DNA of 58,769 nt, taken from assembly GCA_947168085.1 (NCBI GenBank), contig CAMVKM010000001.1, forward strand, positions 1 to 58,769. Reading direction: 5' to 3'. Position numbers and translations under genes: made by a program. Below are positions 8,584-39,621 of this stretch, piece by piece (within the stretch, counting starts at the first letter, position 1; the number at the start of each line of letters is the position of its first letter). The notes beneath the pieces are model-generated. The model did no database searches. It was not told the DNA's origin and was given only the letters and a program-made list of their open reading frames with translations. The DNA comes from an uncultured Clostridia bacterium (lineage in GTDB: Bacteria; Bacillota; Clostridia; Christensenellales; UBA1242).

Positions 8584-8686
8584 TTTTTTCTCCTTGTATT
8601 TATTATAACACAAAAACAAAAATTAAAGCAAGTTTTCAAAGAAACATTTTTTAAAATAATTCATATATTTTTTAAAAGGGGTTTTT

Positions 8687-9202
8687 GTGAAACAAACTGA
8701 TTTTTTTGAAAAAAATGTTATTTCGATTTTTGATGGAGAGTTTTGTGGAAAAGTTGAAAACCTTTGCTTTTGCGGTTTTAAACTTTTGGGAATTGAAATT
8801 AAAAAAGACAATTTAAAATTTTTTGTGCCAGCAAAAGCACTTTTTTCAGTAAACAAAAAATTTGTTATGATAAAAAACAAAAGCTTTTTAATGATTGCAC
8901 AAACACAAAAAGTGATTTCGTTTTTAGGAAAGCCGGTTGTTGATGTTTTTGGAAAAAGTTTTGGAAAAATTTTGCAAGTTTGGTTTTCAAAAAAATTTTT
9001 GATTGAAAAATTTTCAACATCAAACTTTAGTTTTGTCCCAAAACAAATTTTGTCTTGCAAAAATTTTGTTGTAATTAACAACAAAACAAATTTCAAAAAA
9101 AGCTGTTTTGCAAAAAATTGCAAATTAAAATCACAAAAAAACAAAATTTTTGCACCAAAAGTAAGCATTTTGCCTAAACACACAAATTTAAACAAAAAAT
9201 AA
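8687..9202 (+). CDS. PRC-barrel-like protein (two degenerate PRC-type modules), GTG start
   Basis: VISIFDGEFCGKVENL... and GKPVVDVFGKSFGKILQVWF... resemble PRC-barrel strands, and a terminator follows directly. A 194-aa antisense ORF competes with it (see rejected). Confidence 0.55.
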   Translation: MKQTDFFEKNVISIFDGEFCGKVENLCFCGFKLLGIEIKKDNLKFFVPAKALFSVNKKFVMIKNKSFLMIAQTQKVISFLGKPVVDVFGKSFGKILQVWFSKKFLIEKFSTSNFSFVPKQILSCKNFVVINNKTNFKKSCFAKNCKLKSQKNKIFAPKVSILPKHTNLNKK

Positions 9203-9226
9203 AACATTGCATTTTTGCAATGTTTT
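9201..9226. terminator. bidirectional rho-independent terminator (serves the PRC gene and the giant gene)
   Basis: Perfect stem AAAACATTGCA 9201-9211 / TGCAATGTTTT 9216-9226 with loop TTTT, and T-rich flanks on both strands. Confidence 0.65.
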
Positions 9227-9253
9227 ATTAAAGATTTTTTGCTAGATTAGCGT

Positions 9254-12200
9254 TTAAGCTTTGTTGTTATTGCTTGCTTCTGAGTTAGATGTTTGCTCTT
9301 CAGCGCCTTCTTCGCCGTTTTGACGAAGTCTCATACGCTTACGTTTTGCAGCATTAACTCTGTTAATAATAATGATAATAGCCACGATTAAAGCAACACC
9401 AACACCAACACCAACATAAATCCAAACAGAACCCATGCCGCCCCTTGGAACGGTTGATAGCAAGATTACTGTTGATGAAATGTTGTCAATTGTAATTTGA
9501 TTGTCGCCAATCTTTCTGTAAGCTTCTGCATCAAGTGGTTCTTCTGAGAAGCTGCTTTCAATGCCATCTTTTACATAAATCTTAAGTCCAGCATTGTCAC
9601 GGATAAGTGGGTCAACACTAAATGTCAAGTTGTAGGTGCCTTCAAAGGTTGTATCTCTTCCGTCCTTTGTGAAGTGAACAATCACAAGTTCAGCAATTTG
9701 GGCATCAAAAGCACCAACATAGCGTTTAATGTCACGAGCAGTAAGGTCACTTAAGAATTCAAGATAGATTCCAAATCCTTCTTCAAAACCTTGTGGGCTT
9801 TCAGCTTCAACAGAGTAATTTGTTGTTGCATGTGAAATTTTTGGAAGTTTTACTGTAATCTTAAATTCGTTTTGTCCTTCTGCAAACACAAAGTTTTCAT
9901 TGTTTGAAACAACTCTAACCAAGTACCAACCCTCATCAGTGTAACCATTTTGTGCCGTTCCAATTCCGTACTTGTGGTAAGTTACTGTAACTCCTTGGCC
10001 AAATTCATACCATTTGTCCATAACAGACAAGTTAGTTGGTCTTAAGTCATAGCCAAGAGAAGTTTCTTTGATTTCTCCTGTTACTTCATCATATTGAACA
10101 AGATATGGGTCAGAAACAAATTCAATTTGAATTTGAATTGTGCCAACAGTAATTGGAACAATTTCTGTGATATCTCCAAGTGATGTTGTAACAACAAAGC
10201 AAGTGTCGCTAAGTGTTACTCTAGCAAGTTCTCCATACCAATGATAACCATCAACACGCTTAATGTCGTATTGCCCTTCATCATAAGACAAAAGTTCACC
10301 TTTAGCACTTTCTTCTTCTTTGTAATCATCTTTGTCTTCATCGTTAAAGTGTCCAATAACAGTCATGTTGTGATTGAAGAAGTCATAAGCAACATACTCG
10401 CTTTGATATTCAATAACTTCAAGTGAAACAAGATATCTTGGTTCAACTTCAAAGCTCAAAGTTCCTTCAGCATTGTTGAAGTTTCTTGTATCATATGGTT
10501 CGAACACAAAGTGACGAACAAGAGTTTGATGAGCTTTAAGTTCTTTTCCTCCAAATTGTTCGGTTGTGCTTTCAACCCAAGTAAATTCTCCTGGTGTGTG
10601 TGGATCACCAAGGTCATAAACAACATCTTCAAGAGTTTGTGTTGAGTAGTAGTATTGTTTGTTTGGATCTGTTGAACGATACAAAATTCTTGCATCAATC
10701 ATTGGGTTAATTTTGTGAATTTCATAAGTTTTGTGAACAACACCAACATAATTTCCACCAAGTCCCATTAAGGTCATTGTTGCAAATCCTGAATCTGTGT
10801 TGTCAGCATAAACAACATCATAGTCAACTGTTAGTTGAAGAACTTCTTTGTCAACTCCTTCAAGAACAAGTGTTAGAGTGATGTTTTGTGTGATTTCTTG
10901 ACCAAAGTTGTAGTCAAAGTCATCAACAAATCCATCAAGTCTTACATATGATGATTCAATGTCACGTTGCAAAATTGTGTACTCTTTTTCAGCAATTCCT
11001 TCATAGTTTCCACCTTCAATTGCTTCAGCAACAATTGTAATAACACCTGCGTTTTTAAAGAAGTTTGCTTGCATTTCGGCATCTGATGGATCGTAAACAT
11101 ATTCATTTGCTTCACCATAGTTGCGGTAGTAGTTAAGAGTCACATCAACACCAATGTTAACGGTAATGTCATCTAGTCCATTGTTTGATGACACAATTTC
11201 ACGAACAAGATTACTGTGTGATTCTGTGTCATAGTAGTGACTGTCCACATCGTTTAGAAGCACAATTTGTGTAACTGTGCGTTTTTGGATGATAAATGTT
11301 GCTCTAAGGCTGCTTTCATAGTTACCCTTTCCTGTGATGATAACTTCTGCTTCTCCACAGTTAATATTGTTTGAATAATCAGTGTCAAAGTCTTCTGTTG
11401 GGATAAGAGCCACGCCATCAAACTTAACCACTACACTAGGCTCCCAAGCGCTTCCTTTATAGCGCATTTCACCTGTAATATCTTCAAGCACAATTCTGTC
11501 TTCATCTCTAAGACTACGTTTTTTGATTGTAAAGTGGAACACAGCATCACCTTGATAGTTGTTTTGTCCAACAATTGTCAAAGTTGCTTCTCCAGCATCA
11601 ATGTTGTCAGTAACAGCAAATGTGTAGTCATAGTTTTGTGCTTTGTCAAGATCACTGTAAAGGTTTAATGTTGTTCCTTGTCCATCGTCATACTCAAGAC
11701 TAAATTCTGGAACTTGAGCAGTTCTGTCATAAATAATGTTTAAAACATCCCATGTGATTGTAACGTTGTCGTTTGAAAGTGTTCTTGGAATAATTCTAAA
11801 GTAAACAAGTCTTTCTCCACTAAAGTTGTTAATTCCAAAGAATGTAACATGCGCATTGTCTCCACTTTGAATGTTTTCTTCTTCATCAATTTCAAATGTG
11901 AAGTCTCCAGCATATTGCTGATCAACAGGAATTCCCAAAACAAGTTCATTTGCTTCTCCTGGGCAGTAAACAAGGCTCATTGTTGGAGTGATTGCTTCTC
12001 CTGTGTAAGGCATGTCATCAAGTGTAATTGTAACATCATTAAGTGAACGTCTTTCAATTGTAAACAATTTTTCCTGACTTCCCTCAAAGTTGTTAATTCC
12101 ATGAACAATTAATTTTGCCATGCTGCTTGCATTTACGTTGTTTGTAAGTTCAATTTCAAAATCAGAATCCAAAATCAAAGCATCTTCAATTCCGCCAAAC

Positions 12201-15200
12201 ACAACAGTAAAGTTTGGTGTAATTTCGCAGTTATCAAACACGTAAGTTCCCAAAATTGTGATTTGCGCATCAGCAATGTTTCCAAAGTCAATGTCATAAG
12301 CCACAATTTTTGTTGTGCCATCTCTAAAGTTTCTGTTTGTTGATGTTGCAACAACAGTAATTTGTCCGGCATCCTTAAAGTCATCAAGTTCTGGGTCAGC
12401 AACATCGAGTTCAACTGGGGTTGTTGAGTAGTCGCGATAGAACTTAAGTGTAAATTCATTTGCATCAACTGGTTGATCTTCAAATGAGTAAGCAGCATTC
12501 CAAAGGTGTGCTGTGCGATCGTAAACATAAGCTGGATATGGTAAGTTTTCAGCACTGATGTCACTTAGGTCTGCTTTTGTGATTGTAAAGTGTGCATCTG
12601 CAGTGTTTGCATAGTTTTTCCAGAACCTTAGGGTTATGGTTGCAGTTCCTGCATCTTTGTTGTTTGTGTATTCAACAGTAAAGTCATTACGATCTTCGTT
12701 TTCTTCAAGAGAACCAAGAACAAGAGCATCTCCTGTTGATTTTTCTGTTATTGTTACAGTTGGAGTAATGTTTCTTGCAACATATTCTGTTGCATAATCA
12801 GTGTTTCCATTAATCAAAACATCAAAGATTGAAGCAATGTTTTCGTTTGTAATTTGTTTTCTTTCAATTACAAATGTTGCTGTTGTTGTTCCATAGAAGT
12901 TTTTGGTTTCGTCACCAACAAATCTAATCACAGCTTGATTGCTTGCATCAATGTTGTTTCCTTCTAATGTTCTGTCTGTGATGTATTCAACATCAAAGTT
13001 GAATGCACTTGGAGCAAATGGTCTTTGGTTAAAGTAAATTTTTGCATCATCTTGAGTTTGTGCTGTTCCGTCATAAGTCTTTGGAACAAGATCGCGTATT
13101 TCAAGACCTGAAATGTCAACAGCTTCAATCTTGAACTTGGTTTCTTGTTCACCTTCAAAGTTTCCTTGTCCAACAATGCGAACAACATAATCCGCTCCAC
13201 CATTAACATTTATGTAAGGCTCAACACCATACTCAAGAGTAAAGTCATCAAGATATCTAAGATATCCATAATCGCTTTCAGCATCAATATCCTCTGGATC
13301 TGTTGCGTAGCAAACAAGTGTTAAAATATCACTGTTTGCAAGTTTCATTCCTTCAGGATCTCCAGTAAAGCTGTATCTAAATCCTGTGTTTATAGTAATT
13401 TTTGAATCACTAATGTTCTTTGGTTTTATGTTAAATGAAGTTGAAATTTCACCAGTGTAGTTGTGTTTTCCAACAATTCTAATGTCATAATCACCAATTT
13501 CTTTTGCGTTTTCGTCATAAATTAGTGTAAAGTCTTCGTTAAGAAGAAGTGGTGATAGGCTAATGTCACGGTCAGTTACAACAACTTCTGGTCTAATAGT
13601 AAATCCAGTAAATGTTTGTCTTACAATTTTTGTAACAGCATCTTGTTCTTCTGGAACTTCAGGAACACGTTTAAGGTCATTAAGGTCTTTTGGACTAATT
13701 GTAAATGTTTGTATTACATAACCTTTGTAGTTGTTTCGTCCCAAAACTGTTACGCTTGCTGGTGCTTCAAAGCTTGCATTTGTGTTGTTTGTGTATTCCA
13801 AAACAAAGTCTGTTAAGTTAGCATCTTGGCTAGCAACAAGTTGTCTTTCTACACCATCAACTGTAACTGTAATAACAATTGAAAGTGCTGGATCAACACC
13901 ATCAACTGTTTTTGCTGTTCCATCATAAATTGGTTTTAGAACAGTGATGTCAACAATTGTGTTGTCATCATCAATTTCAGTTTGTTCAATCTCATAGTCT
14001 ATGTCAACTGAGCCTTGGTAGTTTGCAACACCAACAACTCGAACAAAGTAGTTGCCAATGTTAAAGTCAAAGTCTTGTGGGTCAATCAAGGTTTCATTGC
14101 TTGTGTAGTATTCAAACCTAAAGTCTGTTGGGTCAAGCGCACCATCAACAGGGCTGTTGTCTGCAACTGTTGGAGTTGGTGTTATTGCGCTGCCTGTGTA
14201 ATTGTAGGTTGTTTTTGTAAGAGATGTCATTGCAAGTGTCAAAGTTTTTGGAACAATCTTAAATGTTGTGCTGGCATGTCCAGAGTAGTTTCCAGCAAAC
14301 TCAACAGTAACTGTCGCGCTTGAAAGAATTTCACCCTCTGGGTCATCATTTGCTCTGCTAACATCAATGTTGTGAGCATAGGTTGCCAAAAGAATGTCAA
14401 GTGATGTAAGAACAACTTTTGAAGACTCATCTTCTGGGTCAAGCAAATAGAATGCTGTGTAGCCTGGTTTTCTTTCTGATCCTGTGTAAATTACATCTGC
14501 AATGTCTTCAAATTGAGCAATGTCTGTAAGGTTACGTTTTTCAATTGTAAATTGTGCGTAAGCATTTTTAATTTCGTAAACTGATGCTTGTGGAGCAAAG
14601 ATGTAGTTAAGTTTTGAGTTGTCGCCACCAGCTTTTGTTTCAATTACAAATGTAATTGTTCCAACATCTGTAAAGTTTTGAGTGATTTGTTGCTCTGCTG
14701 TGCCATAGTTTTCGTAAGCATAAATTGTGTAGTAGCTTTCTGGAACAACAGCAACTTCGTTGTCAGCCAAAACTGTTAGTTGATAACTAAATGGACTGTT
14801 TTTGAACACCAAACTTAGTGTGTCAACTGAAGTGTTTGCAACACTTGCAAGGTCTTGTGCACTTTGCTCTCCATCAATTGTAACATAAGTTCTTGTGATA
14901 AATGCTGGAGTGATTGTAAAGTTGTGGTAAATTGTGCCTGTGTAGTTGCCTTTTCCTGTGATTGTAACAGGGTAAGTTCCAACATCAACACCCAAGTTGT
15001 GAGTTACAACAAAGTCAATGTTTTCAGCAAGTGAATCGTTGCCAACAGCGCCAATTGTTGCTAAAGCATCTTCAACTTTAACTGCTGGGCTAAATGCGTG
15101 GTTTGCATAAGTAAACTCAAGTTCTTCATTTGTTGCAAATCCGTTAAGATAGGTTGAAACTTCAGCAGAATCAAGTGATCTTGGGTTTATCACAAATTTA

Positions 15201-33200: not shown

Positions 33201-36200
33201 ACATAAATTGTTCCATAGTAGTTGTGAGTTGGATTTGCTTGTGTTCCAGCATCAATCTTAATTGCGTAGTGCTCGTTTGCAGTTGTCAAAACATCAACTG
33301 GTTCAGTGCTTGCAAGCGCTGTGTAAGTGTATGGCGCTGATGCCCCACTACGTTTAAAGTAAGAAATTGAGTAGTCAGCAGATGTTAAAACAGAATCAGC
33401 ATTTGCTGATGGTTTGTCTTCAACAATCAAACTTGAGTCTGGTCTAATAATGCCACCAGTAAACGCAAATTGATTGCTGTCCTGCCAACTTGCCATTGCA
33501 TCAGTAAGTGCTTTTGGTGTAATTGCAAAACTTGAAGTGATTGTTGTGTTTTTCTTGTGTGCATAGTTGCCAGTTAAGTGAATTGTGATTCCTGCAGTTC
33601 CAACATTTTTGTTGTTTGAGTAAGAAACAGTAAAGTCAGTTCCCAAAGCAAGAGTTGCGTTTGCTGCTGTCCACTTAATTTCAAAGGTTGTTGAAAGTGA
33701 TGAACCTGTGTAAACTTGAGAAACTGGGCTTGTAACCCATGTGATGTCAGCACTTGCAAGTTCTCTTGCTGTAACTGTAAGTGTTGCTTGAACTCCTGCT
33801 TGCACAACATAGTTTGATTTTCCTGTTGTTGTTCCTGCTCTTGCTGTCACAGTGTAGGTTTTGCTTCCAACATTCTTTTGATAGCCTGATGTGCTTGGAG
33901 CAACAGTAAAGTATTGTGAATCAACCGTGTCGGTTTTGCTGCTTCCAGAAAAAACATAAAAGCTTGGCTCAAAGTCTGCGTTTTTAAAAGCAACACTAAG
34001 TGTGTCAATGTAACCCGAAGAATTTGTACTTTTTGTTTCTGTGCTAGCACCAAGTGTCAAAACTCCAATTTGAAGTCTTGTGATTGTTGCTGCTGTGATT
34101 GTAAATGCTGCATTTCCTTGGCTGCTTGTGTTTGCATTAATGTTGCTTCCACCAATGGTAACGTGAAGATTGTAGGAACCAACATTAATAACTTCATTTG
34201 TTCCAGTAATTCCAGTTCCATCAAAACTTGGTGTAAAGGTGTAGTAACTTGAAGAAACTGCGCTTGTATTTCCTGCAACACGAACTGAAACTGTCAAGTT
34301 TTGTGTTTGGTCAGTTTTTCTGTCCAATTTGTTGTAAACAAGGCTTGGTGAAACACCACTAATTGTGATGCTTTCAACGTTTGCTTTGTTTACAGTTAAT
34401 GTTGCTGTTGTTGAGCCAGTGTAGTTTCCGTTTGAACCGCCACTCACCACAACTGTGTAGGTTCCAGCAGTGATAACTCCAAAACTTCCACCATTGTTTT
34501 GAATTGAAATGCTAAAGTCTGTTCCTGCAGTCAAAGTTCCGTAACCAGTTTTTGAAACAGTAACATCTGAAGCGCTGATTGTTTGAGTAAGTCCATTAAA
34601 GGTTAATGCGCTGATTGATGCAGTAAATTCACTTAAAGCTCTTGCATTAATGTCAAAATACTTTGAAACATCATTTCCAGTGTAGTTTCCTTTTCCTTCT
34701 ATAACTATATAATATCTTTGTGCTGTTTTTGGATTTGCAACATAGTTTGCTGAACTTGCTGAGTTAACTGTTGAAAAGTGAACAACGTAGTCGTTGTTTG
34801 TGCCCTCAACAAGTGGGGTGTTTGGATTAATCACCTTATCTTTCACTGTGATTGATGGCACTTGTTTTGTTTTTGTTTCGTCATAGTAAAAACTTGCTGG
34901 ACTAACAGTTAAATTAACATTTCCAGAAATTTGTTTTGGATTGATTGTAAAACCACCAGAAACTTCAATTTTTGTGGTTGCGTCGTAGTTGCCTTTTCCT
35001 TTAACAAACAATCTGTAGGTTCCAGCATTTGTGATTGTTGCTGGGTCGGTGCTTCCTTGAACAGCAAAGAAAACTTCGTAGTCTTGGTCTTGTGTCATTG
35101 CACCAATTGTTTTGTCAGTAACAGACACGGTTGTTGTGCTACGTGAAACACCATCATATGTAATTGCGTTAACTGTTCCAACTGTAAAGCCACTTGTTGT
35201 TAATGCCTTTGGTGTGATTGTAAAAGTTTTTACAACTGAAGAACCAGTAAAGTTGCTTGCTCCGGTGCCAACATTTGTGTTTGGAACAAGAGTAACTGTT
35301 CCGCCGTCTGCAACATTTCTGTTTGTGCCATAAGTTGCTTTAACCGGAAAAGCTGCAGTTGAACCAACCAAAATTTCTGGATCACTGTGATCTACAGTAA
35401 CAGTTGGGGTAAGTTGACTGCCTGTAAACACATGAGTGTTGTACTCTAACACAATGTCAGCAGCATTTAATGTTGAAAGATCAAAAGGATGAATTGTGAA
35501 TGTAACACTAATTGGGCCACCAGCTGGGTTTTGAAAACTGTCGCCTTGTGCGTTAATTATCACTGTGTGATCACCAGCTGACTTAAAGTCTGTTGTGCTG
35601 TAGGTGATGCTGTAGTCATTACCATACGCCAGTTCTACACTTCCAGCCCAAACATGCTTAAAAGTTGGAGCAAAAACTCCGCCATCATAAACTGCATTTT
35701 TGTAAATGTCGTTAAATTCTGCACTTGTGATTGTTGCTTTGTTAATTATAAATGAGTTGCTTTCATCAACGCCAGTAAAGTTTCCTGTTCCTTCAACAAC
35801 AACGTAGTAGGTTCCACCAGCAACAACTTCATTTGCTGCATAGTAGTTTGAACCTTTACGATATCGAACAGTGTATTCTGTGCCTGAACTAAGAGTCATG
35901 CCAGAAGCCTGAACTTGTGTAACCTGACGCGCGTGTGGATTTCCATCATAAGTGTAAGCAGCATTTCCATTTAAAGTGATTGATGCTCCTTGAACTGAAA
36001 CACGGTTAATTGTGTAGGTGTGTGTTATAACACCTTTGTAACTACCAATTCCGGTAATTTCAATTGTAATTGTTCCCTTGTTTGGATAAACTGCTGTGTC
36101 AGTTGTGTTAACAAAGTCGGTTACTTCTGTTTTACTTGATGTACCATATTTGAAGTAATATTTTAAAGTAAAGTCAACATTTTCTTCAAGCTCTTTTGAG

Positions 36201-38683
36201 TAAACTTGATTGCCAACTTCAACTTCCCATGTGATTTCTGGAACAATTTTGTGTGCGTTTCTATCATAAAACACACTGTTAACAGCATCAAGTTCGATGC
36301 TTGAATCAGAAAGCGGTGTCTTAACAACAAATGATTTTTTAACAGAACCATAGTAGTGAGCATTCACTCCAACAAGGTTGTTTGTTCCAAGTCCAGACAA
36401 AATTCCTTCTGCAACAACATAGTAAGTTCCACCAGTTGCGGTAACAGTGTTTGCAGTGTATTCTTGTGTTAAGGCTTGGTTAAAGTAGCGCACTCTAAAG
36501 TCAGTGCCTTCTGCTGTTGAAAATGTTGCTGCTCCATTTAAAAGTTGAACTGGGTCAACTCCGTCACGAAGTTTGTATTCAGCAGCTGGGCCACCAATTG
36601 TTGTGTGCACAATTGTTGAAGCTGTCATTGAAAGTTTTGGGTAATCTAAAAGTGTGTAAACCCAAGCACATGTGTTGGTTGTTGTGTTAAAGTTTGGAAA
36701 ATCAGTCATTCCGCTTGGCTTTGTGTTGATTTCACCACTACTTTTCATTTGCGCTTCAGTCAAACGATTTCCAACAACATATTCACCAGGTGTATTAGTT
36801 GGTCTATCATACTCTCTGTAAGCATTGTTAGCGGTACTATCTAGATAGTAGCATGCAGTTACGCTTCCACCTCCATCAACTAAAAGCCCTACAATACCAT
36901 TTTTCCCCGAAGGAAGTGAACCGACGTTGTAAGCATAACTGATTTGAGAGTAACTAACACCAGCAATTCCACCAACTCTGTTTCCAGACGAAATCGTTCC
37001 AGTGTTGTAAACTCTTGTGATTAATGTGTTTACTGTCACTTGGTCAATTGTTGTATTTTCTGCGGAACCAACAATTCCACCAACATTCATTCCATTTGAA
37101 AGAGTTGCGTTGTTATAGCAATCGGAAACCGTCGTTCCAAAAGCCCAAGCAACAATTCCACCAACTCGACTGGTTGTTGCTGATGTTCCACTGATTGTTC
37201 CACTCAAAATTGCAACATTTTGTATGTAACCACCTTTAATTTTTCCAAAAAGTCCAGCATGAGCTGCTGTTACATTAATGTTTGAAATTCCATGACCTTG
37301 GCCGTCATAGAAATATGTGTAGTTTCCACTATTTCCACCAATAGGGGTAAATGATGAATCGTTTTGTAAATCGATGTCAACTGTTTGTCTAAAATAATAA
37401 CCACTTAATGCCGCTGCATTTTCAGACAGTGTCATTAAGTTTGCTTTGCTTTCAATAAGGAAAGGACTGGCAGAAGTTCCTTCTCCACTAAATCCAGGAA
37501 TGATTGTCCATGGGAAAGTGATTACTGTGCTTGTTCGTGTTGTTCCATCACTTGGAAGAGTTGTGCTGCTGTTCCATTCATAGTTTGTGGTTGTGATTTC
37601 AAAACGCGCTGTGTAGTCACCAACTGCTGATGCACTTATGTAACTTTTTGTAACAACAGTGTCTGCTTGTCCACTTTGGCAATTGTTAATTTCATTTCTG
37701 TAAGATGTGTCGTAATCTGGTGACACATTGCTGCCCGTGTAAATTGCATCTCTTGTTTTTAATGGCAATGTCAAAACTTTTTTGGTGATGTCAAAACGAG
37801 CGTAGGCATAACCATAGTAGTCATTTTGACCTTCAACTTGAACATAGTAAACACCAGCATTTGTGTAAGGTGATGATGTTGGGTTTGCTTTGTTTGAGTC
37901 AACATAGCACCATGTGTAATCTCCCTCATGAGTGGTTGAATTGTATGGATCTAAGTTAACCCATGCAGCAGCTTCATAACCTGGGTCTGTTGGTGGAACC
38001 ATTTTAAGTTTCACTTCAGACACAGTAACGTTGTATGGGTCACCATTATACTGTCTGTAGATTTGCGCTGCATCATTGGCGTGCTCAAGATCTGCTTCAT
38101 CATGCAAAGTGATAAACGCATCTTCAATGTTTTGAATTGATGTGTTGCCAATTTGATTTTGATAGTCAGCAAGGTTAAGCCTTTCAATTTCAAATGGAAC
38201 AAAAAGCTCCCCTTCAAAATCAGAGCCTAAACCCACAACTTTGCGATAGTAAGTTCCTGCATGAACTGGCGCAGCATCCATTTCCGCAAATTCATTGTTT
38301 GCGTCTTTAACAAAAAACGCTTCTGCAACAACAAAGTTTGTGTTTTCAACAAGCAAAAAGTCTTGTTCATCAATGGTTACAACAACCTTTTGAACAGTTG
38401 GACTAAATGCTTCGTCATTAAACACTCTTGATGTTTCAGACAACAAAACATTAACGCTGTAGGCACTGCCACCTTCAGCAAGCGAACGCAAAACACCTTG
38501 ATTGGTGTTTAGATCATCTGTCCACAAAATTGTGGTGTCGCTCAAGTTGCCACTTGTTTGTGTTTCAACTTGACCTGTTGTTGTTCTTTGCCCTGCAAAA
38601 TTAAAGCCAAGCATTGCAACCACAACTGCTGCGATTGCAACTGGCAAGAAAAAGAACAATTTTAGAAAGTTTTTCTTAGACAT
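9254..38683 (-). CDS. giant (9,809 aa) membrane-anchored repetitive surface protein / putative fibrillar adhesin with a GLUG-type beta-helix and MBG/YGX-type Ig-like repeats
   Basis: Uninterrupted 29,430-nt ORF with GAGGT SD at 38689-38693, 5 nt before the ATG. See the sub-features for domains. The recurring unit signature is Y-[TD]-G-x(3-5)-P ... [GT]-x-D-Y-x-[VLI]-x-Y-x-N-N-x-N-[AV]-G-T-A ... G-x-G-N-[YF]-x-G ... F-x-I-x-P-[KR]. Confidence 0.95.
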   Translation of the reverse strand: MSKKNFLKLFFFLPVAIAAVVVAMLGFNFAGQRTTTGQVETQTSGNLSDTTILWTDDLNTNQGVLRSLAEGGSAYSVNVLLSETSRVFNDEAFSPTVQKVVVTIDEQDFLLVENTNFVVAEAFFVKDANNEFAEMDAAPVHAGTYYRKVVGLGSDFEGELFVPFEIERLNLADYQNQIGNTSIQNIEDAFITLHDEADLEHANDAAQIYRQYNGDPYNVTVSEVKLKMVPPTDPGYEAAAWVNLDPYNSTTHEGDYTWCYVDSNKANPTSSPYTNAGVYYVQVEGQNDYYGYAYARFDITKKVLTLPLKTRDAIYTGSNVSPDYDTSYRNEINNCQSGQADTVVTKSYISASAVGDYTARFEITTTNYEWNSSTTLPSDGTTRTSTVITFPWTIIPGFSGEGTSASPFLIESKANLMTLSENAAALSGYYFRQTVDIDLQNDSSFTPIGGNSGNYTYFYDGQGHGISNINVTAAHAGLFGKIKGGYIQNVAILSGTISGTSATTSRVGGIVAWAFGTTVSDCYNNATLSNGMNVGGIVGSAENTTIDQVTVNTLITRVYNTGTISSGNRVGGIAGVSYSQISYAYNVGSLPSGKNGIVGLLVDGGGSVTACYYLDSTANNAYREYDRPTNTPGEYVVGNRLTEAQMKSSGEINTKPSGMTDFPNFNTTTNTCAWVYTLLDYPKLSMTASTIVHTTIGGPAAEYKLRDGVDPVQLLNGAATFSTAEGTDFRVRYFNQALTQEYTANTVTATGGTYYVVAEGILSGLGTNNLVGVNAHYYGSVKKSFVVKTPLSDSSIELDAVNSVFYDRNAHKIVPEITWEVEVGNQVYSKELEENVDFTLKYYFKYGTSSKTEVTDFVNTTDTAVYPNKGTITIEITGIGSYKGVITHTYTINRVSVQGASITLNGNAAYTYDGNPHARQVTQVQASGMTLSSGTEYTVRYRKGSNYYAANEVVAGGTYYVVVEGTGNFTGVDESNSFIINKATITSAEFNDIYKNAVYDGGVFAPTFKHVWAGSVELAYGNDYSITYSTTDFKSAGDHTVIINAQGDSFQNPAGGPISVTFTIHPFDLSTLNAADIVLEYNTHVFTGSQLTPTVTVDHSDPEILVGSTAAFPVKATYGTNRNVADGGTVTLVPNTNVGTGASNFTGSSVVKTFTITPKALTTSGFTVGTVNAITYDGVSRSTTTVSVTDKTIGAMTQDQDYEVFFAVQGSTDPATITNAGTYRLFVKGKGNYDATTKIEVSGGFTINPKQISGNVNLTVSPASFYYDETKTKQVPSITVKDKVINPNTPLVEGTNNDYVVHFSTVNSASSANYVANPKTAQRYYIVIEGKGNYTGNDVSKYFDINARALSEFTASISALTFNGLTQTISASDVTVSKTGYGTLTAGTDFSISIQNNGGSFGVITAGTYTVVVSGGSNGNYTGSTTATLTVNKANVESITISGVSPSLVYNKLDRKTDQTQNLTVSVRVAGNTSAVSSSYYTFTPSFDGTGITGTNEVINVGSYNLHVTIGGSNINANTSSQGNAAFTITAATITRLQIGVLTLGASTETKSTNSSGYIDTLSVAFKNADFEPSFYVFSGSSKTDTVDSQYFTVAPSTSGYQKNVGSKTYTVTARAGTTTGKSNYVVQAGVQATLTVTARELASADITWVTSPVSQVYTGSSLSTTFEIKWTAANATLALGTDFTVSYSNNKNVGTAGITIHLTGNYAHKKNTTITSSFAITPKALTDAMASWQDSNQFAFTGGIIRPDSSLIVEDKPSANADSVLTSADYSISYFKRSGASAPYTYTALASTEPVDVLTTANEHYAIKIDAGTQANPTHNYYGTIYVIYDITQIDMANVTISILNPSSIIYRGTAWTTDVPYTISYAGNQMTDPTDYTRTYGTNLNVTVSGDDSTRGSITFTGHGNYKNSQTVYFAILPKSISGMTISGINANGYTYTGGQIKPSFTVKDGSTTLVKGQDFNFSDSDWANNVNVSFNANNQVVANATVTITGMGNYDTTTTKVITFKIVQKDLSDTTEISVTSGANLHYAFTGSSQSLSANDRANLVSYSKFVRRGSNKHLEENVDFVISYADAEADRVNVASKKHYVVNISAKENGNFTGSTSTYFTITSVTLTQAMLNLDTADKIYTGSEITVTPTVSHNSKTFSENANNFAVSYSADRVNVGTVTVTVTGNASGNQNFTGSISGSYQIVAKPVSDLSDFTVTVGSGAAAKVWPQVYATDYNATAQTPAVVVVENVRSGEQGGGVLQPTTDYTVAYTNNTDAGTATITIGFCNNYSGSPTASFTINQVSLALITNTASVADITYTAGALNEHKKQASDFAFKFNNVAVDTTNEYNVKWFRDYNDSTKKAVTTDFRKVGTITLELTSKGKNFTSGTVKTVSYNIVPRHIGDVTASILSTENLTYTGVALTPDYNISFGGDTPLQKDVDYTVTYANNLNAGNATITFVGIGNYTSMIGQTQTNKVLNFTIAPKDITDNTYGTISASIASQEFVTNSPRDPDVVVTYTITYKTNPEQVNTLVSQTTNATNYDFTESYSLNGTPKTANDLVDAGIYTVRIQASGNYTGHLDLDFEIYKRNLYGKSFVEYAANNDYTFTFNQITPAFTLFYDATGAETSTSDELTTDDYTISYGTNIHVATGGTITVTGKRNYEGSQTFNFAIDPKDISEIEAQTAHGAGVMTYDTIASRVFNREAYTPTIGAHYNGHTLVLGANQHFTVDYQDNTHVYHDGSGQVASNAKAILSGHGDFEGTITLYYMITPAEITKLQVILNDLDGDKTINAVVDGTSATNAKTLTFKNSEFTYSVHVWSGSFDITAGDYDETLQTGTPGDSSYYTLVVENANGGAVDLTNIGTTNFSIVPQKNTANTAMDYDFASGKNIVASFTIAKRNLNGQINFHNVSAKTYTGSAVTQNFQDTGDSVAYTTYQLPTPGASTQVRLLSTDISSITYVDNVNVAYKTENSVKVVDAKAKVVVAFTGNYEGSAECYFRIEPKALTADMLTLSGFDNAQNSSFEFTGAAHAPTMTVLDPAVGTQIITSSDYTLGIFTRTGSSEPYTYTPESSPIHVKTYYVVFDANDYDGENVGLKNYVGRIEKTFAITPISVTDNRVSIAVSDPTSIIYRGTQWTPALTVTYNNMTVALSDTNGYTVTYGENINATTPGTYVVSGHGDYTGTTSTLEFTIIPRDITAANISYTISGQAVPNTGLDPNTYVYTGSEITPTVVIVDSGLATGQDYSLLFGATAQGTDGDLAPAIYANNTKVSYNGTVVAAQATIALAGRGNYQGSRTITFKIDPKDISTLTFGGTYTADGYKFNYDFTGYNVPLGSNDLATLLYYTGYGYLNKDIAANPSVVDFEYDYVDSARVNVANNKKYYVILQGKGNFTGRIDNTTTTKVYFTINPINLATLSVKNIADVTYNGEAHTPTAYVQFNGQEFTASDINFTATYDNNVNVSFDQTGIIAGAYVDLTGATTKNFSGTIRKYFKILPKQITSFDEFLDVQIGGTSMPDKTEILPAFSGYEPVYTSQQQLPSVYLYTKTTTAQPQSQTYGVGTHFSVTYTNNIEVKRQNDTLGGAVIANALVTITLGGTQNRNYGGTLTATFKIVPADLDDITYTASAVDDVLYDTANHQVSASNLNFAFGGNSVSNEEYTMGWYRESSDVDAIAITVDNATINVKPTSNFRDAGKIYIVLETKGKNFAGNKEDIYYRINPKSIAATGQHAVSLSIANQTYTRDANGAVVLKPVIAMTYYAEDLQEDRDYTVTYWNSNGTEQRFVTGSTNLLTEAGTYMVKITGIGNYATTAATAEPTSYRDDVTYTIDPRNISTSSDIIKNNIASQEYNNADLIPYVNFTYFGYRLQTSTDVSPSPIELNITMFEEDGETATTPRHAGNYVIKIEGTGNYTGQTTKSFVITKKEITINSTYLTASAGNNYIYTGANIEPSFTAAYMSGGNVLENLQAGTDYTATYGENINVVFDGTSYVAAGTIVINAVANGNYQTAAGGVTYYFVIYPKALDNNEIAQAAVTNAVDNNKGYLLRSADASPTALGSVVMTAPTNSVYNAQNYAPEVNPQYTPAGYSTRSLAKTTNYTLTYYFADDAVNANAVTPVNAESYKAVVSGVVGTTEGTANYVGSVTYNFTITPAYVTRMALTVDQGLVTEAPSTRSYVTEAGVNISVDQVSRVFKNSDYARAFTIVSNTVADVPAANFSIESFRYYAIAGQQYSYDAIMQADPTDPKLATFFSDVGKIKFELTLNSITESGRTFTNYVFETNTGVRAELTIIEKTFSIGTADLSWVGYDATPETYTGSEIEKSFSLTWTDSTLGVTTAQSLVSGTDYTVSYDDNTDAGTATITISFAGNYAGTDQKQFTILARTIESNMTSILKLLNISTQQMQEMTKDSNDVYTAPYTRSAINPIPQVTDNIKLVGGVVTPTILIDETDYTFAYKQGNTTVAAPTTVGTYTVVIQGMGNYSGTIPIDFVIETVAITHADFNLDSTSNTAYTGDQIKPNYTVTFNGNTLTGRELLPNEDIDTVTGYDFIITYANNINVKRLNDALDGAVVENFASMTIIGINNFRKLDEFDQLVFATRTFTVNPRNINETNKLTIADNRVNTTIYYDGAAHDISSDVTLNHASMAQSRGTLLVQNTDYVVSYNDNINAGTVTMTFAGCGNFAESATYSFAISKYILGQYDTIAGINATGYNYDHLSHSPVLTISTSSSQLTTTSRTLTASDYEENYYRADTNGTETINNVLVSETTDFTSAGTIYVKIAGLNINYTGQITTSYEIYPATLTIISFTGTNEDTFSNASKYSKFAITQVAQITTEDTNRLGGNDVKINPDSLSDVSVQYCRESNGVNAFTVNNTSVEETDDFTSAGTIYVVVSPVSTNYTGTAVKTFTIAPKAIAQNADFSIKYYYVSYYTDANSQVVVTDIPTDGDGVEIFYNESTTTYYYMDGDDQVLVGYGNDSVANPGTEAAMVTLYGAKDTGFALGDYYNNSNNIRRVKIYMINSQTYQGRPLKSEIVFVSAESVAKPLLQEGSLTDASNRQDYTYSWTKQDYQGQTTTDFTVVGTVTITITGYGNYAGGFTREYNVTARPLNSENFAQSNLTVIYRGTGFVWADLFPAFTSLTTQHYTVAQYEDLADKTAVDSEIQASLAAIYTAANPQYIVVKDKVQNIYVVPELQLQLCTFHVNDPSIGDNTIGQGQYASYLNNINVGMGTMLIAGVAGKGYAENTALPISFTIDPYDITNDTTNILTSDTATAEEQAARIYTGSEITIDSFVEVLDNRSTISVNDLTQNIDYTLGYISDITLAHNNINASAKNLDSTNTTGQAKVIITGIGNYTGTREVLFTIKQKDISNADATYGATNATFVVNPDEFIYNLAAQRPTTTSMTYNTMSLVQAAQGDYQVVYWRECESTDTGATAFPTSETGGTTGYLYMLTQDSDFVATGTIFVQFVANSGVGVWNGNYTGYTFSSYEITPVKILRFELLIGTTQNGAVYYDGTENFEITYDGVAHTIWGARVLDINGNVVDSSGYRFTYVNDQNTQVTTSASGDLPAFDFTNVRVFATPHANLNDIVISAVSPNFEMAANTTANFDDTFVFEISPKPISGLTVSNIADKTYNRGSFSPTNGTNANDDFSILDNSLATGSDYYLVTGTDVTLAYDGRVNVGISTITVTGINNYSGSLPVTFEIVARNINEAGILQDVSDTISYEFTGSQISVLDADAVKYLKYDGIALVLGDEFTVSYVDDTRINVGYDDNGVAAKKYYGLILEGQGNFTGTITNGENSKVAYFTIDPKALVDLENAMTTTDYISGIVDKTYKGAAWTQGEDSQDIVLTFNGKGYKAGTLNFSVGYSNNTDVTIENGNVVAGAVVTISATANQNFVGIVNDATTPAVTRNFTINPYDVTGKTIEQVFSRKIGLDNADFDDIEWGNDYAISYLSEAHTPHIVLKSTFADERILTRGNYGAEATTADYTVAYDKNIDAINNGAEIIVTFHKNYTGQAKSLFTITQASFQDEVYFTTASIQNFDYDWEDHKEFPEWIKFNNKTVDSSEYTVTYYRDYEAELIDDILTPTSASQITTEFDKAGTITVFLKSTGKNFVLNSGRAISYTIERKNINASDVTVDWDSSNKPYTTSAINPTFTLTYLGHDLTAESGANANDFSVVYGENTNVVYRSAGVYEAAAYFQIIGNGNFVSGTNSFYDSTLAYNADNADIYRTHYFTITPKNINEVTLAASTLADVEFNEQDQKPTVLLSYNNDNPLDVSEATTAKDAKITYSDNRNVAYDGEGEVRAAATITIEAKGNYVGTRIEHFKITPRHLTENVSLVWDEDASHYIYTGSEITPKFGTHIVLNQTLIYDPDGVGTVLFDGSTYTYDNVQHETSLDFVWEYSNNINVAREGGALDGNVLSAAVLTIEGRGNYTDTLVYNFAVTPRPISDVTIDPIANQTYIRTNITPGIVANYNNLPTLVDGTDYDLTYITDPTVLHNNINAGTANITVAGLGNYGSTTVVSFTIVAATLDRIVISTTNESNTQGTSVGPTTQTVSGLTTLKDVLSFDYKHAAFNIVTEVRTNVSDVPGTYGYDANGFVAVLSDYFNITAYRNYSASIENNEIVRTGTITPDFTNVGTITFVVTAKADANGNMNYVVAPNCDLVAEFTIEALDLSSRVVWSTVTAQTYTGYAIEPTFTLTYEINGQTVTLNHDDFEGTEEIQGDIIYKTDFTTSYAHNVNVYDGTPTIAVVFEGNYTGGTTQTFVINPKSLEDASITVVLDEDSFDYNSHARTPIPTVTDTSRNALNESGIVLTSGTEPLADTDDFSFAYYTRSGTVGNYTYTEIASPINAGTYYVGITGNSNYTDFVAVSYVINKIDLSRTVVAIDPNVAESYFVYDKTAKTPDIVVTFDTTLDVLTLTQFDDSTHTVSDVYDYDFTVAYTRNVNVKYVNDELVADALITITGSGGNYVEGSTQTLLFAIQPKDISDVLILIEDIATESQKLARIFTGLNITINGDVQVSDSRLAAADQILTLGTEFAQGTDFYLTYVTSKELANNNINASANNKALFSDDEHNGQAKITITGSWNYTGTRELYFTIYQKDITELLVGGTETLDGYSFAYPYKASTVSLSDANILTLLCYAADSSDIQADEYGFLSNNNNLDFSVGYVDADRVNVGDGTQVVKYYVVLTGNGNFKGTIDQTTAKKVYFTITPQQLSGDMMYVDGALNGVDKTYTGSEIKLAPTVEFNGAHSDNVVVGQNINFNATWTEDFDSVNTTLCVDVGTVTITITGASYMNFVGEVSKQYRIIPQEITNLENFFRLWVGNVEYFTPAQNIYGNVYNATAQTPGVELKSKFDDGRTLVEDVVTIEQGEPVVTPKDYSVAYTSNTNVTYGTVQGVRTVVAGAVITIAFHGNYTGEAVANFQINPQTNLTTILWGAGDMYNHHPVEYSRTPHDDEFNESDLVYHIGDNNYAVSADEFDVTFYRNYATAQETQITNPEDFVDIGVITVVLTSTGRNFVGTKDTLDYEIRVTKISLAEIDVDHMEMTFTGEEIDDESGFTFRVIFENIYTLSSDKSLIGTPNEGKGDYEFEFTNNFHAGTATLTIYGLNNFNYIDPITGERDSKSINFTINKKNIADDEIASVVAEIWKSETEHFDEGEDPSFEYNQDEDGNTVPITPKITLSYNGKSIHNGVVAEEANWLDYFTVQYINNENAGIATIRVTGNKDFSGTIERTFEITKRKISDASASVVWAIEDNHISLDASHKWVIDDLNYAVSTTNIVYDGTQQTPFFEINYRDTLGLDKLSAYSYQFSLNKTVDYEDDGITPKATATLTITGINNFEGSTEFKFVINPRSLDSAEVSTYLNGFATNEELEFTYANHAFSPAVKVEDALATIGAVGNDSLAENIDFVVTHNLGVDVGTYPVTITGKGNYTGTIYHNFTITPAFITRTYVTIDGEQSAQDLASVANTSVDTLSLVFKNSPFSYQLTVLADNEVAVVPESYYTIYAYENYGTAEQQITQNFTDVGTITFVIETKAGGDNSKLNYIFAPQASVYEIKNAYAQFTIEKRNLTDIAQFEDIADVIYTGSERKPGYTAFYLLDPEDESSKVVLTSLDILLATYAHNIDVSRANDDPEGEILSSATVTVEFAGNYSGHASTTFKIVPKTLTLAMTSLTKTTYNYTGSAITPTPTVADNSPVDGALDPTDFRFEYYTSNETLIDPQDFDFNIGNYFVRVVGVANYQGSVDIDYEIEQTEIDDDNTIVDITVLKPIYDGTAKTVDGVDPALSIVITVTVDGVERQLVASQDANLTDFVLEYTNNTNASFEAPASVTVLGRNNYKGYVIQTFTISPKDLNDLKRVPEVPEEQDAVTKIVRQTFTGFTIRPEVVVTDRDISLSPLLLNEDFTLIYDENAKEIGDYDIRIVGKHNYTGEISTSFNIKPKNISDSKITINTGFRYSFTGDPEGMKLANSDILTLVCYATDPEDIDAESDYGYLRYLDDFTLEYGVEPYINVNGGADYVVRIVGQGNFEGEQETKFKIEAVDISGLEIRDLVPKTYDGTAQTQDDAKIYFNQRPFAPSAFNFDVEYITDRTLEGNNIDASNQAVIRFVGDETKNFYGTTTATFVIERKQITNENIASIFDVLINGNTDYATEYVARNITPTVTITEKSTGDALVLGSLEENEDRNDFTVEYTNNKDAGTATITLRFWKNYANTADAHFTITKADLSDISAENLPYPAYVYDRTAHLWNAAYSFEDQPVDANEFTLKFYRDYSTTPVELDVADPELDDFKDAGQITVVATSTNRNFRDGTTKIVAYDIDFGNIADAQITILGTYVFDNCEITPNFTVVFGGIEDALILDSDFEIELTNNVNASSMAKLIVHGINNFEGSQEKLFTIERRSLNDVTITLDDMPYTGEAITPTMSLVYCPGEANELVLGIPVDQQYAGDFTFEIDEEENIQSGDNAHVTFFGINNFSGERLVYFRIIPRTLSNDNVTITWDVLNIIYDRTAQVPEFSLEYDDGQGTTLNLYSDLDKAQNYDYTFAVTDNIDAGEATLTIVGQNNYQGDAVFHFTIKKRSLRDEDRIVLEDITGEMRYKGSAWEPSVVVKFDGVALIPTEDFDTDYSNNINCGEAEVIITGKGNYESSLRATFIIQKRTVTQIVLLNDVDSHYYDTESHSNLVREIVSSNNGLDDITVNIGVDVTLNYYRNYGEANEYVYDPSDAEMQANFFKNAGVITIVAEAIEGGNYEGIAEKEYTILQRDIESSYVRLDGFVDDFDYNFGQEITQNITLTLVLEGVDKEVLQLTVDYDVVYADNTDSGFATMTLMGLGGNYVGVVHKTYEIHKINPMIDARILYRSTDPNKQYYYSTQTLEDVVYDLGDPHTPGEFTWVESTTEQFGGKELKAHQTLVRHFVFEPYDTRNFNNAEGTLSFEVEPRYLVSLEVIEYQSEYVAYDFFNHNMTVIGHFNDEDKDDYKEEESAKGELLSYDEGQYDIKRVDGYHWYGELARVTLSDTCFVVTTSLGDITEIVPITVGTIQIQIEFVSDPYLVQYDEVTGEIKETSLGYDLRPTNLSVMDKWYEFGQGVTVTYHKYGIGTAQNGYTDEGWYLVRVVSNNENFVFAEGQNEFKITVKLPKISHATTNYSVEAESPQGFEEGFGIYLEFLSDLTARDIKRYVGAFDAQIAELVIVHFTKDGRDTTFEGTYNLTFSVDPLIRDNAGLKIYVKDGIESSFSEEPLDAEAYRKIGDNQITIDNISSTVILLSTVPRGGMGSVWIYVGVGVGVALIVAIIIIINRVNAAKRKRMRLRQNGEEGAEEQTSNSEASNNNKA
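9356..9439 (-). other. C-terminal transmembrane anchor of the giant protein, followed by a basic/acidic cytoplasmic tail (9257-9355)
   Basis: GMGSVWIYVGVGVGVALIVAIIIIINRV followed by NAAKRKRMRLRQNGEEGAEEQ.... No LPxTG-type sorting signal. Confidence 0.8.
10700..36620 (-). repeat. tandem array of roughly 90-100 diverged Ig-like coding repeats (~90-110 aa each), organised in about 7 super-repeats
   Basis: The protein-level unit signature recurs throughout, and landmark units recur every 3.1-4.2 kb (see findings). Boundaries are approximate. Confidence 0.8.
36629..37492 (-). other. GLUG-motif beta-helix 'head' module of the giant protein (aa ~398-685)
   Basis: GEGTSASPFLIESKANLMTL... followed by repeated G-G-I-V/A-G turns (AGLFGKI, VGGIVAWA, VGGIVGSA, VGGIAGVS, NGIVGLL), as in GLUG-motif adhesin and IgA-protease-type modules. 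Confidence 0.65.
38591..38683 (-). other. N-terminal signal peptide or signal-anchor of the giant protein (aa 1-31)
   Basis: MSKKNFLK followed by LFFFLPVAIAAVVVAMLGFNFAG. No lipobox, and the cleavage site is ambiguous. Confidence 0.7.
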
Positions 38684-39219
38684 TTTTTACCTCGATTTAT
38701 TTTTCTGTTTCCTTGGTGGAAATATATTTGAATCACTGCCGCAAAGCAAATTCAAAATTGCCTTTCAAGAACTTTGGAGTTTTCACAACTGCAAAATTCT
38801 CAAAATTAAATTTTGTTTTTGCCAGCACCAATGTTTCAACCATTTTTTGAAATCAACCCCTTAAACGACAAAAAACACAAAAAGGCAAACGGAAAGTTTT
38901 TTTACCCTAAAGTGCTCGCGTAAAAGAAATTTAAAAAATCAAAAAATTAAGTTTTAGCACCAGTCGAACAATTTTTGTCCGGATTAGTCTCGTTTTTTGT
39001 ATCTTACCCCACTAATGCTGCTTATATTATACCCCATTTTAGAAAAAAAGTATACTAAAATAAGACAAAAATCCCAAAATTTTTCAAAATTTTTTTTCGC
39101 CACTTTTTACCCCCAAAAAGCCCACATTTTAAGCCAAAAACATAGGAATTTAGATTGAATGATTTTCTGTTTTTTGAACAAAAATCCAAGCATATTTACC
39201 TCATTTTTTAAAAATTCGT

Positions 39220-39232
39220 GGTAAATTTTACC
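39220..39232. promoter_or_regulatory. 6-1-6 palindrome GGTAAA-T-TTTACC in the giant-gene leader, overlapping a TAGGGTAAAAT -10-like element
   Basis: Read directly from the sequence. The minus-strand TAAAAT (39230-39225) has TTTAAA 17 nt upstream. This is a candidate only. Confidence 0.3.
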
Positions 39233-39590: not shown

Positions 39591-39621
39591 AAACAAAAAA
39601 GAGAGCAAAAAACTCTCTTTT
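39591..39621 (-). terminator. rho-independent terminator of the metal-binding lipoprotein gene
   Basis: Stem AGAGAG 39600-39605 / CTCTCT 39613-39618 with a 7-nt loop. On the minus strand a T-run follows. A second imperfect hairpin lies at 39631-39663. Confidence 0.6.

Follow-up and report, generated by a model that had tools for sequence, protein, structure and literature searches.

A 9,809-residue protein, probably a membrane-anchored surface fibre, encoded in the genome of an uncultured Clostridia bacterium

The window, a 58,769-nucleotide stretch of an uncultured Clostridia bacterium (contig CAMVKM010000001.1 of assembly GCA_947168085.1) contains a single giant open reading frame (ORF) on the minus strand (9254..38683), whose product of 9,809 aa is probably exported by Sec and anchored in the membrane as a type-I, fibrillar surface protein of a spore-forming uncultured Clostridia bacterium, where it would act as a long-reach adhesin or spacer. 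From the ORF, the domain make-up, the topology signals, a super-repeat, the family membership and the synteny, all of which were computed directly, we infer the export route, the cleavage of the signal, the extension length and adhesion. In brief, the N-terminal hydrophobic segment would target the chain to the Sec translocon, and the chain would be threaded outward from N- to C-terminus until a C-terminal transmembrane helix and its Lys/Arg-rich tail stop the transfer and fix the C-terminus in the membrane, no sortase motif being present. A 427-aa module next to this helix probably spans or engages the cell wall, and about 90 small beta-sandwich modules would form a beads-on-a-string stalk. 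Provided that the signal peptide is cleaved, a GLUG beta-helix head and a few N-terminal modules would be held at a distance from the cell by the stalk. The type-I topology proposed here is based on Sec export and the positive-inside rule. In the adhesin SiiE the per-domain rise is about 3.3 nm, which supports the length estimate: at 3.3-4 nm per module, a stalk of ~90 modules would be ~0.3 um long, and the few hundred nm put forward in an earlier, sequence-only reading of this DNA are thus a reasonable figure.

According to the ORF list and to our own translation, the ORF has an ATG start, 9,809 codons and one terminal stop. The sequence-only reading had reported an unbroken ORF of 29.4 kb for 9,809 aa, and both its coordinates and its description are accurate throughout, except that the (minus) strand had been omitted. 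Stop codons represent 3.3-10.4% of the codons in the remaining five frames of the same DNA, and with these frequencies the chance of a stop-free run of 9,809 codons is ~1e-280.

Termini, topology and GLUG head

Exactly two hydrophobic segments are present in the 9,809 aa and both are terminal (aa 4-31 and aa 9749-9780), the second being followed by KRKRMRLR. The first belongs to a signal peptide or signal anchor (aa 1-31; 38591..38683, minus strand, as for all parts of the gene given below), composed of MSKKNFLK, a 21-residue hydrophobic core and NFAG. At the opposite end, the predicted transmembrane helix (aa 9749-9780, VWIYVGVGVGVALIVAIIIIIN; 9344..9439), which is identified by its hydrophobicity and is conserved in relatives, precedes a putative cytoplasmic basic tail (aa 9781-9809, KRKRMRLR...; 9257..9343) that would act as the stop-transfer signal. 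These ends correspond to the signal/anchor, the transmembrane helix and the charged tail that had been proposed earlier. The LPx[TAS]G motif is absent from the whole protein, and neither a sortase gene nor a dedicated secretion gene is found in the window, a lack that had likewise been noticed in the first reading. The whole protein contains only 19 Cys residues.

Between the N-terminal segment and the stalk, a region with 2-3 irregular units (aa 32-397; 37493..38590) is followed by the GLUG beta-helix head (aa 398-690; 36614..37492), which is supported by Pfam, AlphaFold2 and Foldseek. Indeed (i) the Pfam family Glug (PF07581) is matched in three stretches of aa 380-720 with 25 bits, above its cutoff of 20.5, (ii) the AlphaFold2 model, built from a 73-sequence alignment, has a predicted local distance difference test score (pLDDT) >90 over ~200 residues and a predicted TM-score (pTM) of 0.81, and shows the short-strand periodicity of a beta-helix, and (iii) Foldseek retrieves 3N6Z (BACOVA_03286, a 'putative IgA1 protease' of Bacteroides ovatus) with E 1.7e-8, probability 1.0 and TM-score 0.51 over 308 columns, as well as 6XJB, 7UVK and 7UVL, the N-terminal domains of Streptococcus pneumoniae and Gemella IgA1 proteases, with E <1e-3. 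The GLUG-type beta-helix expected at aa ~398-685 is therefore well placed. A protein homology look-up returned 375 homologs of the head, mostly annotated with PF07581 and sharing at most ~38% identity; all head and unit homologs from this look-up are shorter than 600 aa, and it was not used for judging rarity. No NCBIfam model matches the head. This beta-helix is the probable ligand-binding head of the protein, and it would take a distal place only after cleavage of the signal peptide.

The structural matches of the head would also suit a secreted or surface enzyme of the IgA1 protease type, a reading that we regard as highly implausible. Indeed, the GLUG beta-helix fold that the head has in common with the N-terminal domain of M26 IgA1 proteases (6XJB, 7UVK; 7UVL also matches) and with BACOVA_03286 (3N6Z) is a non-catalytic domain, to which the match is confined; in the giant protein, unlike the M26 enzymes, it is fused to a fibre, and neither a protease domain nor an HExxH motif is present in the 9,809 aa, nor is there any match to Peptidase_M26 or to another catalytic Pfam or NCBIfam model. 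An M26 mechanism is ruled out by the absence of this zinc-binding motif.

The nature of the N-terminus bears on the proposed topology. By the -3/-1 rule the cleavage site (N-F-A|G) is poor and the 21-residue core is long, so that the N-terminus may stay in the membrane. The protein would then be a double-anchored loop of ~150 nm with an uncleaved signal anchor, forming a brush-like protective or spacing layer with the head near the membrane. Similarly long N-terminal hydrophobic segments in relatives such as P0123 would agree with such a coat, as would the ~370 aa that precede the head, which is thus not at the extreme N-terminus. However, long signal peptides are typical of Gram-positives, the binding domain of fibrillar adhesins is usually distal to the anchor, and relatives ending in FN3 repeats or in type IX secretion system (T9SS)-type domains keep N-terminal signals, which suggests a leader rather than an anchor. 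A loop anchored at both ends is accordingly considered rather unlikely, and a cleaved, outward-pointing fibre is preferred.

Repeat unit and thirteen-unit super-repeat

An iterated hidden Markov model (HMM) recovers 83 units with confidence, the median period being ~100 aa, and a second HMM recovers 84, or 88 with the weak ones. Besides the head region, four module-sized stretches (~100-146 aa) are left uncovered by the second HMM, which brings the total to ~88-92 modules, close to the 90-100 immunoglobulin (Ig)-like units estimated in the sequence-only reading. The unit consensus is YTGsAiTP..TV....L..gtDYTVtY.NNiNvGtAtVTItG.GNYtGt..ktFtI.P, and an AlphaFold2 model of one unit, for which the 83 internal copies served as alignment, folds into a small beta module made of five strands and a single short helical turn (pLDDT 95.1).

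The assignment of this unit to known families is weak. Many MBG (YGX-type) Pfam matches had been predicted, but a Pfam search with three 3,300-aa pieces returned nothing except a spurious CcmD_alt match, and unit by unit only three of the 83 touch these families (two MBG_3, one MBG) and one matches Big_3, all weakly. When the MBG models (PF17883, PF18676, PF18887) were tested at E<0.01, the best match was 4.6e-4; for Big_3 (PF07523) the best unit reaches 19.3-19.7 bits, below the gathering cutoff of 21.2. No NCBIfam model matches the unit, the N-terminus or the relative P0176. Judged by these scores, the unit falls short of the curated thresholds for membership of Pfam MBG or Big_3.

In a search of the PDB sequences with the 83-unit profile, the sole solved match is the CmbA/Lar_0958 repeat (4NG0), which is covered over its full length with E 3e-4 and has the motifs Y-x-G, AG-x-Y-T, NY and T-I in common with the unit. 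Despite this profile match, 4NG0 is not among the top 50 Foldseek matches of the AlphaFold2 unit model. Searched with Foldseek in PDB and BFVD, the unit has no match at E<=1e-3; the top match is the Big_3 structure 2KPN (probability 0.91, E 0.15, TM-score 0.34), and the others include InlK/internalin, Rib and S-layer Ig-like domains (TM-score 0.3-0.5), with similar results in BFVD. Since no Foldseek match is significant and no Pfam family is called, 'Ig-like' is a loose description. The Ig-like adhesin repeats of the sequence-only reading thus stand as a small beta module with remote MBG/Big_3 likeness and a profile match to 4NG0, without the Pfam thresholds being reached or the structural matches being significant; an Ig-like adhesin module, remotely related to MBG and Big_3, is a fair description of the unit.

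Identity between units is flat at ~22% for separations of 1-12 units, so that tandem duplication has not occurred recently. Self-comparison of the whole protein by BLAST shows the diagonal only. A longer period becomes visible just when 400-aa fragments are aligned to the protein by BLAST: collinear matches of 350-470 aa with 27-35% identity and E down to 2e-44 recur at offsets of ~1,265-1,400, 2,400, 3,770, 5,100 and 6,410 aa. Behind a linker and nine units (aa 691-1526; 34106..36613), the stalk can be divided into super-repeat 1 (aa 1527-2755, 13 units; 30419..34105), super-repeat 2 (aa 2756-4131, 12-13 units; 26291..30418), super-repeat 3 (aa 4132-5128, degenerate and shortened, with 7-9 units and divergent modules; 23300..26290), super-repeat 4 (aa 5129-6599, 13 units; 18887..23299), super-repeat 5 (aa 6600-7989, 13 units; 14717..18886) and super-repeat 6 (aa 7990-9321, 14 units; 10721..14716). 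With the exception of the degenerate third, these super-repeats can be aligned in register along 900-1,500 aa (E down to 6e-95), and the in-register scores are ~3-6 times the best out-of-register score. On the strength of these alignments, the stalk is six copies of a ~13-unit block that follow nine leading units. This 13-unit super-repeat was absent from the sequence-only reading and is new here.

The stalk probably grew by duplication of the ~13-unit block, and all units have since diverged to ~22% identity; such divergence removes recombination-prone repeats from the DNA. It has been argued for titin that sequence divergence of neighbouring domains should limit misfolding between them, and the same should apply here.

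Membrane-proximal module, relatives and assembly integrity

Between the stalk and the transmembrane helix lies a conserved, non-repetitive membrane-proximal module of 427 aa (aa 9322-9748; 9440..10720), which matches the ~400 aa of non-repetitive sequence noted earlier at this place and is common to the relatives P0123, P0128 and P0130 and to the syntenic counterparts described below. Compared with P0123, P0128 and P0130 it has an hhalign probability of 98.9% (E 2e-17, 397 columns), and an HMM of the relatives matches aa 9204-9798 of the giant protein at 7e-34. The link is found by profile methods, while BLASTP gives none between the C-terminal module and these three proteins. The module has no Pfam or NCBIfam match, and a PDB profile search gave a chance match only.

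The unit is widespread. A search of 1.84 billion representative proteins with the unit profile shows that it is carried by 39,352 of them at E<=1e-3 and by 7,603 at E<=1e-30. The top matches have 3,000-7,600 aa and 40-76 units, and all 150 matches listed are shorter than 9,809 aa and have fewer than 83 units. Among the relatives, P0123 (7,213 aa, complete) contains a signal, a unit array, the membrane-proximal module and a transmembrane helix with a basic tail; a transmembrane anchor as in the giant protein is also present in P0128, P0130 and P0158, and in P0129 the units follow an N-terminal GLUG head. The relatives have 41-76 copies of this ~95-aa unit. Block duplication is seen in relatives too, with a ~2,290-aa block at 35-40% identity in P0123 and one of ~2,400 aa in P0128. 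P0123, P0128, P0130 and a syntenic gene of 18,041 aa thus have the plan of the giant protein (signal, block-duplicated array, module, transmembrane helix and basic tail). They differ from it in the sequence of the C-terminal module (17-27% identity, with 58-63% in the closest relatives only), in their N-terminal heads (P0130 is devoid of a GLUG head), in length and in block size, and none of these relatives has been studied experimentally. Unit arrays also occur in other contexts (P0122, P0124-P0126, P0127, P0131, P0176), with Clostridia-type FN3-repeat ends or Bacteroidota-like T9SS-type C-termini; one fragment among them contains 17 perfectly identical unit copies, and none of these units is called by Pfam.

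The position of the gene is conserved as well. The nearest named relatives are entries labelled 'MAG: Clostridia bacterium' (MAG, metagenome-assembled genome), with a Der protein 82% identical, and in such a relative a gene called at 18,041 aa adjoins the SPFH-flippase-YetF-NrdR-Der-PlsY block. This counterpart, nearly twice as long as the giant protein, is found in two assemblies (L003:1-3617, ENA ERZ28654714 scaffold_226; L004:1-3614, GCA_017478185.1, JAFVEA010000003.1), and the visible part of the gene, its last 1,204 aa, is collinear with aa 8535-9761 of the giant protein (26.7% identity, E 1e-67), the module, the transmembrane helix and the tail being part of the alignment. The syntenic genes of loci L003-L007 are all collinear with the giant C-terminus and free of stops, those of L005-L007, like that of L001, being truncated by the contig end. 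At L005, where Der is 95% identical, 417 aa are visible and share 58% identity with the giant protein, the same value as for the 597 aa visible at L001; at L006 (1,734 aa called) and L007 (2,829 aa called), both with a Der identity of 82%, the last 1,262 aa were compared and share 27%. These comparisons show that the giant gene keeps its position, while its length varies and its sequence evolves fast. FtsQ/A/Z and SpoIVA are encoded in the flanks of relatives, so that the host is a walled, sporulating Firmicute. A scan of a genome collection with the C-terminal module found only the known 9-kb MAG contig. In this contig, CAVEAP010000025.1 (L001/L002:7070-7160), an inverted duplication of adjoining sequence surrounds a run of N, so that the apparent split of the related giant gene into two ORFs (2,377 and 597 aa) is a scaffolding artefact; this contig was deposited as a '[Ruminococcus] torques' MAG, a label that is doubtful for a locus with ~35% GC.

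The sequence-only reading had feared that the ORF is a repeat-assembly artefact, and a chimeric or mis-joined assembly of repeats that stays open by accident, or a pseudogene, must be weighed, since the window is a metagenome contig and the scaffolding artefact of L001 lies in a related one. Mis-assembly is also known for repeat-rich adhesin genes: in cmbA of Limosilactobacillus reuteri, perfectly identical repeats of ~290 bp are undercounted in short-read assemblies (PMC13339910). The giant ORF is the opposite case, with diverged units. Indeed, Tandem Repeats Finder detects no tandem repeats across the 29.4 kb, the longest direct DNA repeats are motifs of 30-84 nt with 60-80% identity, and the protein identity between units is ~22-23% on average and 45-55% at most, which leaves an assembler without anything to collapse or mis-join. 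Furthermore, the probability of an ORF open by chance is negligible (~1e-280, as given above), codon usage is uniform and native, and several other assemblies contain a collinear gene at the same position. The artefact is therefore extremely improbable.

In base composition the ORF resembles its surroundings, with a GC content at third codon positions (GC3) of 0.263, compared with 0.22-0.30 in neighbour genes. Its higher overall GC content comes from the second codon positions (0.41), which reflect a composition rich in Thr, Gly, Ala and Ser. Horizontal acquisition of the gene is rejected, its GC3 being native. Compared with the housekeeping neighbours, the ORF has a more biased codon use, which is uniform along its length: AAC (0.69 vs 0.53), TAC (0.59 vs 0.37) and ATC (0.22 vs 0.10) are preferred and GGG is avoided (0.01 vs 0.13). 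More generally, C-ending Asn, Tyr, Asp and Ile codons are enriched, and GGG, GTG, CTG, TCG and ACG are nearly absent. This bias agrees with the ORF being translated and suggests selection for efficient or accurate translation of a very long message.

Comparison with known giant proteins and genomic neighbourhood

The sole solved relative of the unit belongs to CmbA/Lar_0958 of L. reuteri, a proven fibrillar mucus adhesin with a beads-on-a-string shape, which is anchored to the cell wall by sortase and has 8-11 perfectly identical repeats in ~1,500-1,800 aa (PMC13339910). The giant protein differs from it by ~90 fully diverged units, a transmembrane anchor and the lack of LPXTG. A sortase-anchored LPXTG adhesin, of the CmbA type or of that of the microbial surface components recognizing adhesive matrix molecules (MSCRAMM), was thus rejected, no LPx[TAS]G motif and no sortase gene being found in the protein and the window, respectively; the hydrophobic segment and the basic tail that such adhesins have are present.

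The topology is closer to that of Ebh/Embp of staphylococci, proteins of ~10,000 aa with an N-terminal signal, very long repeats and a C-terminal transmembrane segment with a positive tail instead of LPXTG. The giant protein has the same arrangement and size class, with its signal, the helix at aa 9749-9780 and KRKRMRLR. The repeats of Ebh are alpha-helical (FIVAR/GA), whereas the unit model of the giant protein is all-beta, Pfam gives no FIVAR, GA or DUF1542 match, and a GLUG head is present.

This likeness could be taken to mean that the protein is a non-adhesive envelope scaffold or molecular ruler. Titin super-repeats bind periodic partners or set a fixed distance, and the position-specific super-repeat could do the same; alternatively, the protein could act in envelope integrity or cell size, which Ebh reportedly supports. 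Besides the equal topology, two observations would fit: equivalent super-repeat positions are 25-30% alike over >1 kb (E to 6e-95) compared with ~22% for neighbouring units, and the giant gene lies beside division and envelope genes (FtsQ/A/Z, flippase) at a conserved position in relatives. The in-register similarity is, however, explained equally well if a block was duplicated long ago and the likeness has no function, relatives differ in block size (~2,290 aa in P0123, ~2,400 in P0128), positional counterparts have 9,809 and 18,041 aa, and the C-terminus is only 58% identical in a relative with 95% Der identity. Such plasticity of length, block size and C-terminus argues against a precise ruler, and a scaffold or ruler role is held to be unlikely. 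A related and quite doubtful proposal is that the super-repeat is a functional periodicity, in which surfaces at equivalent positions would bind regularly spaced partners (wall polymers, copies of the fibre, host or plant-fibre ligands), the protein being a modular extracellular scaffold or ruler, possibly tethered at both ends, whose length would be tuned between species by the addition of whole super-repeats, from the six blocks present here to ~13 predicted for the 18,041-aa counterpart.

Returning to the fibrillar adhesin or spacer, comparable designs exist in SiiE, MpIBP and LapA, where a tandem bacterial Ig-like stalk projects ligand-binding modules over hundreds of nm. These proteins are Gram-negative, secreted by a type I secretion system (T1SS), and have C-terminal RTX repeats and an N-terminal plug in the outer membrane. 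An RTX adhesin was rejected here: there is no HemolysinCabind or RTX match and no T1SS gene in the window, the polarity is opposite (C-terminal anchor) and the host belongs to sporulating Clostridia. Among Firmicutes, Giant1-5 of Apilactobacillus kunkeei are fast-evolving proteins of 3,000-8,000 aa without a transmembrane domain, for which attachment via SH3b-like/DUF5776 domains is predicted (PMC12863079). Their general plan is similar, and the giant protein differs by its transmembrane anchor and its repeat folds.

Several points weigh against a membrane-anchored adhesin or spacer. In addition to the poor cleavage site and to the metagenomic origin of the contig, this role is read from the architecture and from a single characterised relative of the unit; what GLUG beta-helices bind and do is not established; the best Foldseek E of the unit (0.15) is not significant and Pfam calls none of it; the C-terminal module has no known relative, which makes its wall-spanning role a guess; and the two assemblies with the 18,041-aa gene may derive from the same sample.

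ORFs of this size had been called rare in bacteria, which holds per genome. In databases, however, they amount to tens of thousands, and the positional counterpart of the giant gene reaches 18,041 aa. UniProtKB holds >41,000 proteins above 5,000 aa, and in bacteria the class of surface-attachment proteins is second in size to that of nonribosomal peptide synthetases and polyketide synthases (PMC11573180); predicted bacterial proteins reach 85,804 aa, some of those from Firmicutes exceeding 30,000 aa (bioRxiv 10.1101/2023.11.21.568195). The giant gene is therefore a large, clean and complete example of a family that is present in databases but undescribed. New points are that a widespread unit lacks a curated model, that 13 units form a six-fold super-repeat, that the C-terminal module is conserved and that a counterpart of 18,041 aa exists. 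The gene is also a complete giant-fibre gene from a poorly sampled Clostridia lineage, free of assembly ambiguity, where most short-read relatives end at contig ends. Since Pfam-A and NCBIfam effectively miss the unit, its carriers are annotated as featureless 'hypothetical' proteins, and a dedicated unit model would annotate much of the dark surface proteome of gut and rumen Firmicutes and Bacteroidota. Together with its 18,041-aa counterpart, the super-repeat offers a tractable case of giant-adhesin growth via block duplication followed by divergence. If expressed, a ~0.3-um fibre for which a small genome spends ~29 kb would probably dominate contact with particles, hosts or phages.

With regard to expression, the start codon is preceded at 6 nt by a Shine-Dalgarno (SD) sequence, GAGGT, in agreement with the good SD described earlier. 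Upstream of the gene, an ORF-free, AT-rich leader or promoter region that includes this SD extends over 38684..39596, up to the znuA terminator (39621-39597); these ~900 nt without a credible ORF between the terminator and the start of the gene form an unusually long leader or regulatory region. No Rfam family is matched in the leader, and its weak sigma-70-like promoter matches are not above the expectation from shuffled sequences. Downstream, an intrinsic-terminator-like hairpin with a 14-bp stem and a T run (9198..9229) starts 25 nt past the stop codon. With a leader of its own and this hairpin, the giant gene looks like a stand-alone transcription unit.

The genes around the giant ORF are those for PlsY, Der, NrdR, YetF, the flippase, SPFH and ZnuA. 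Between the giant gene and the SPFH gene, two ORFs overlap on opposite strands (8623-9207, minus; 8687-9202, plus). Relatives have at this spot a gene for 159-220 aa that belongs to no Pfam family and lies on the strand opposite to the giant gene, so that the plus-strand ORF (171 aa) is probably real and the minus-strand ORF, rich in Phe, Lys and Leu, spurious. Two probable surface proteins, both devoid of the giant's unit, are encoded further away on the minus strand: a 544-aa lipoprotein with a borderline Big_3 match (52087-53721) and, almost at the contig end, a 1,572-aa ORF with a Pectate_lyase_5 'adhesive' domain (53996-58714). Four contiguous or overlapping minus-strand genes (42180-50483) have an operon-like arrangement and code for an 821-aa fusion of a TMEM164-like domain with an ATP-binding cassette (ABC) ATPase, a 579-aa protein with a weak ABC_tran_2 match, a 175-aa membrane protein and a 1,156-aa lipoprotein (lipobox ...FTAC) that matches nothing in Pfam or NCBIfam. 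Finally, a tRNA gene (40973-41057, plus strand; Rfam RF00005, 54 bits) is located between znuA and a metallophosphoesterase gene.

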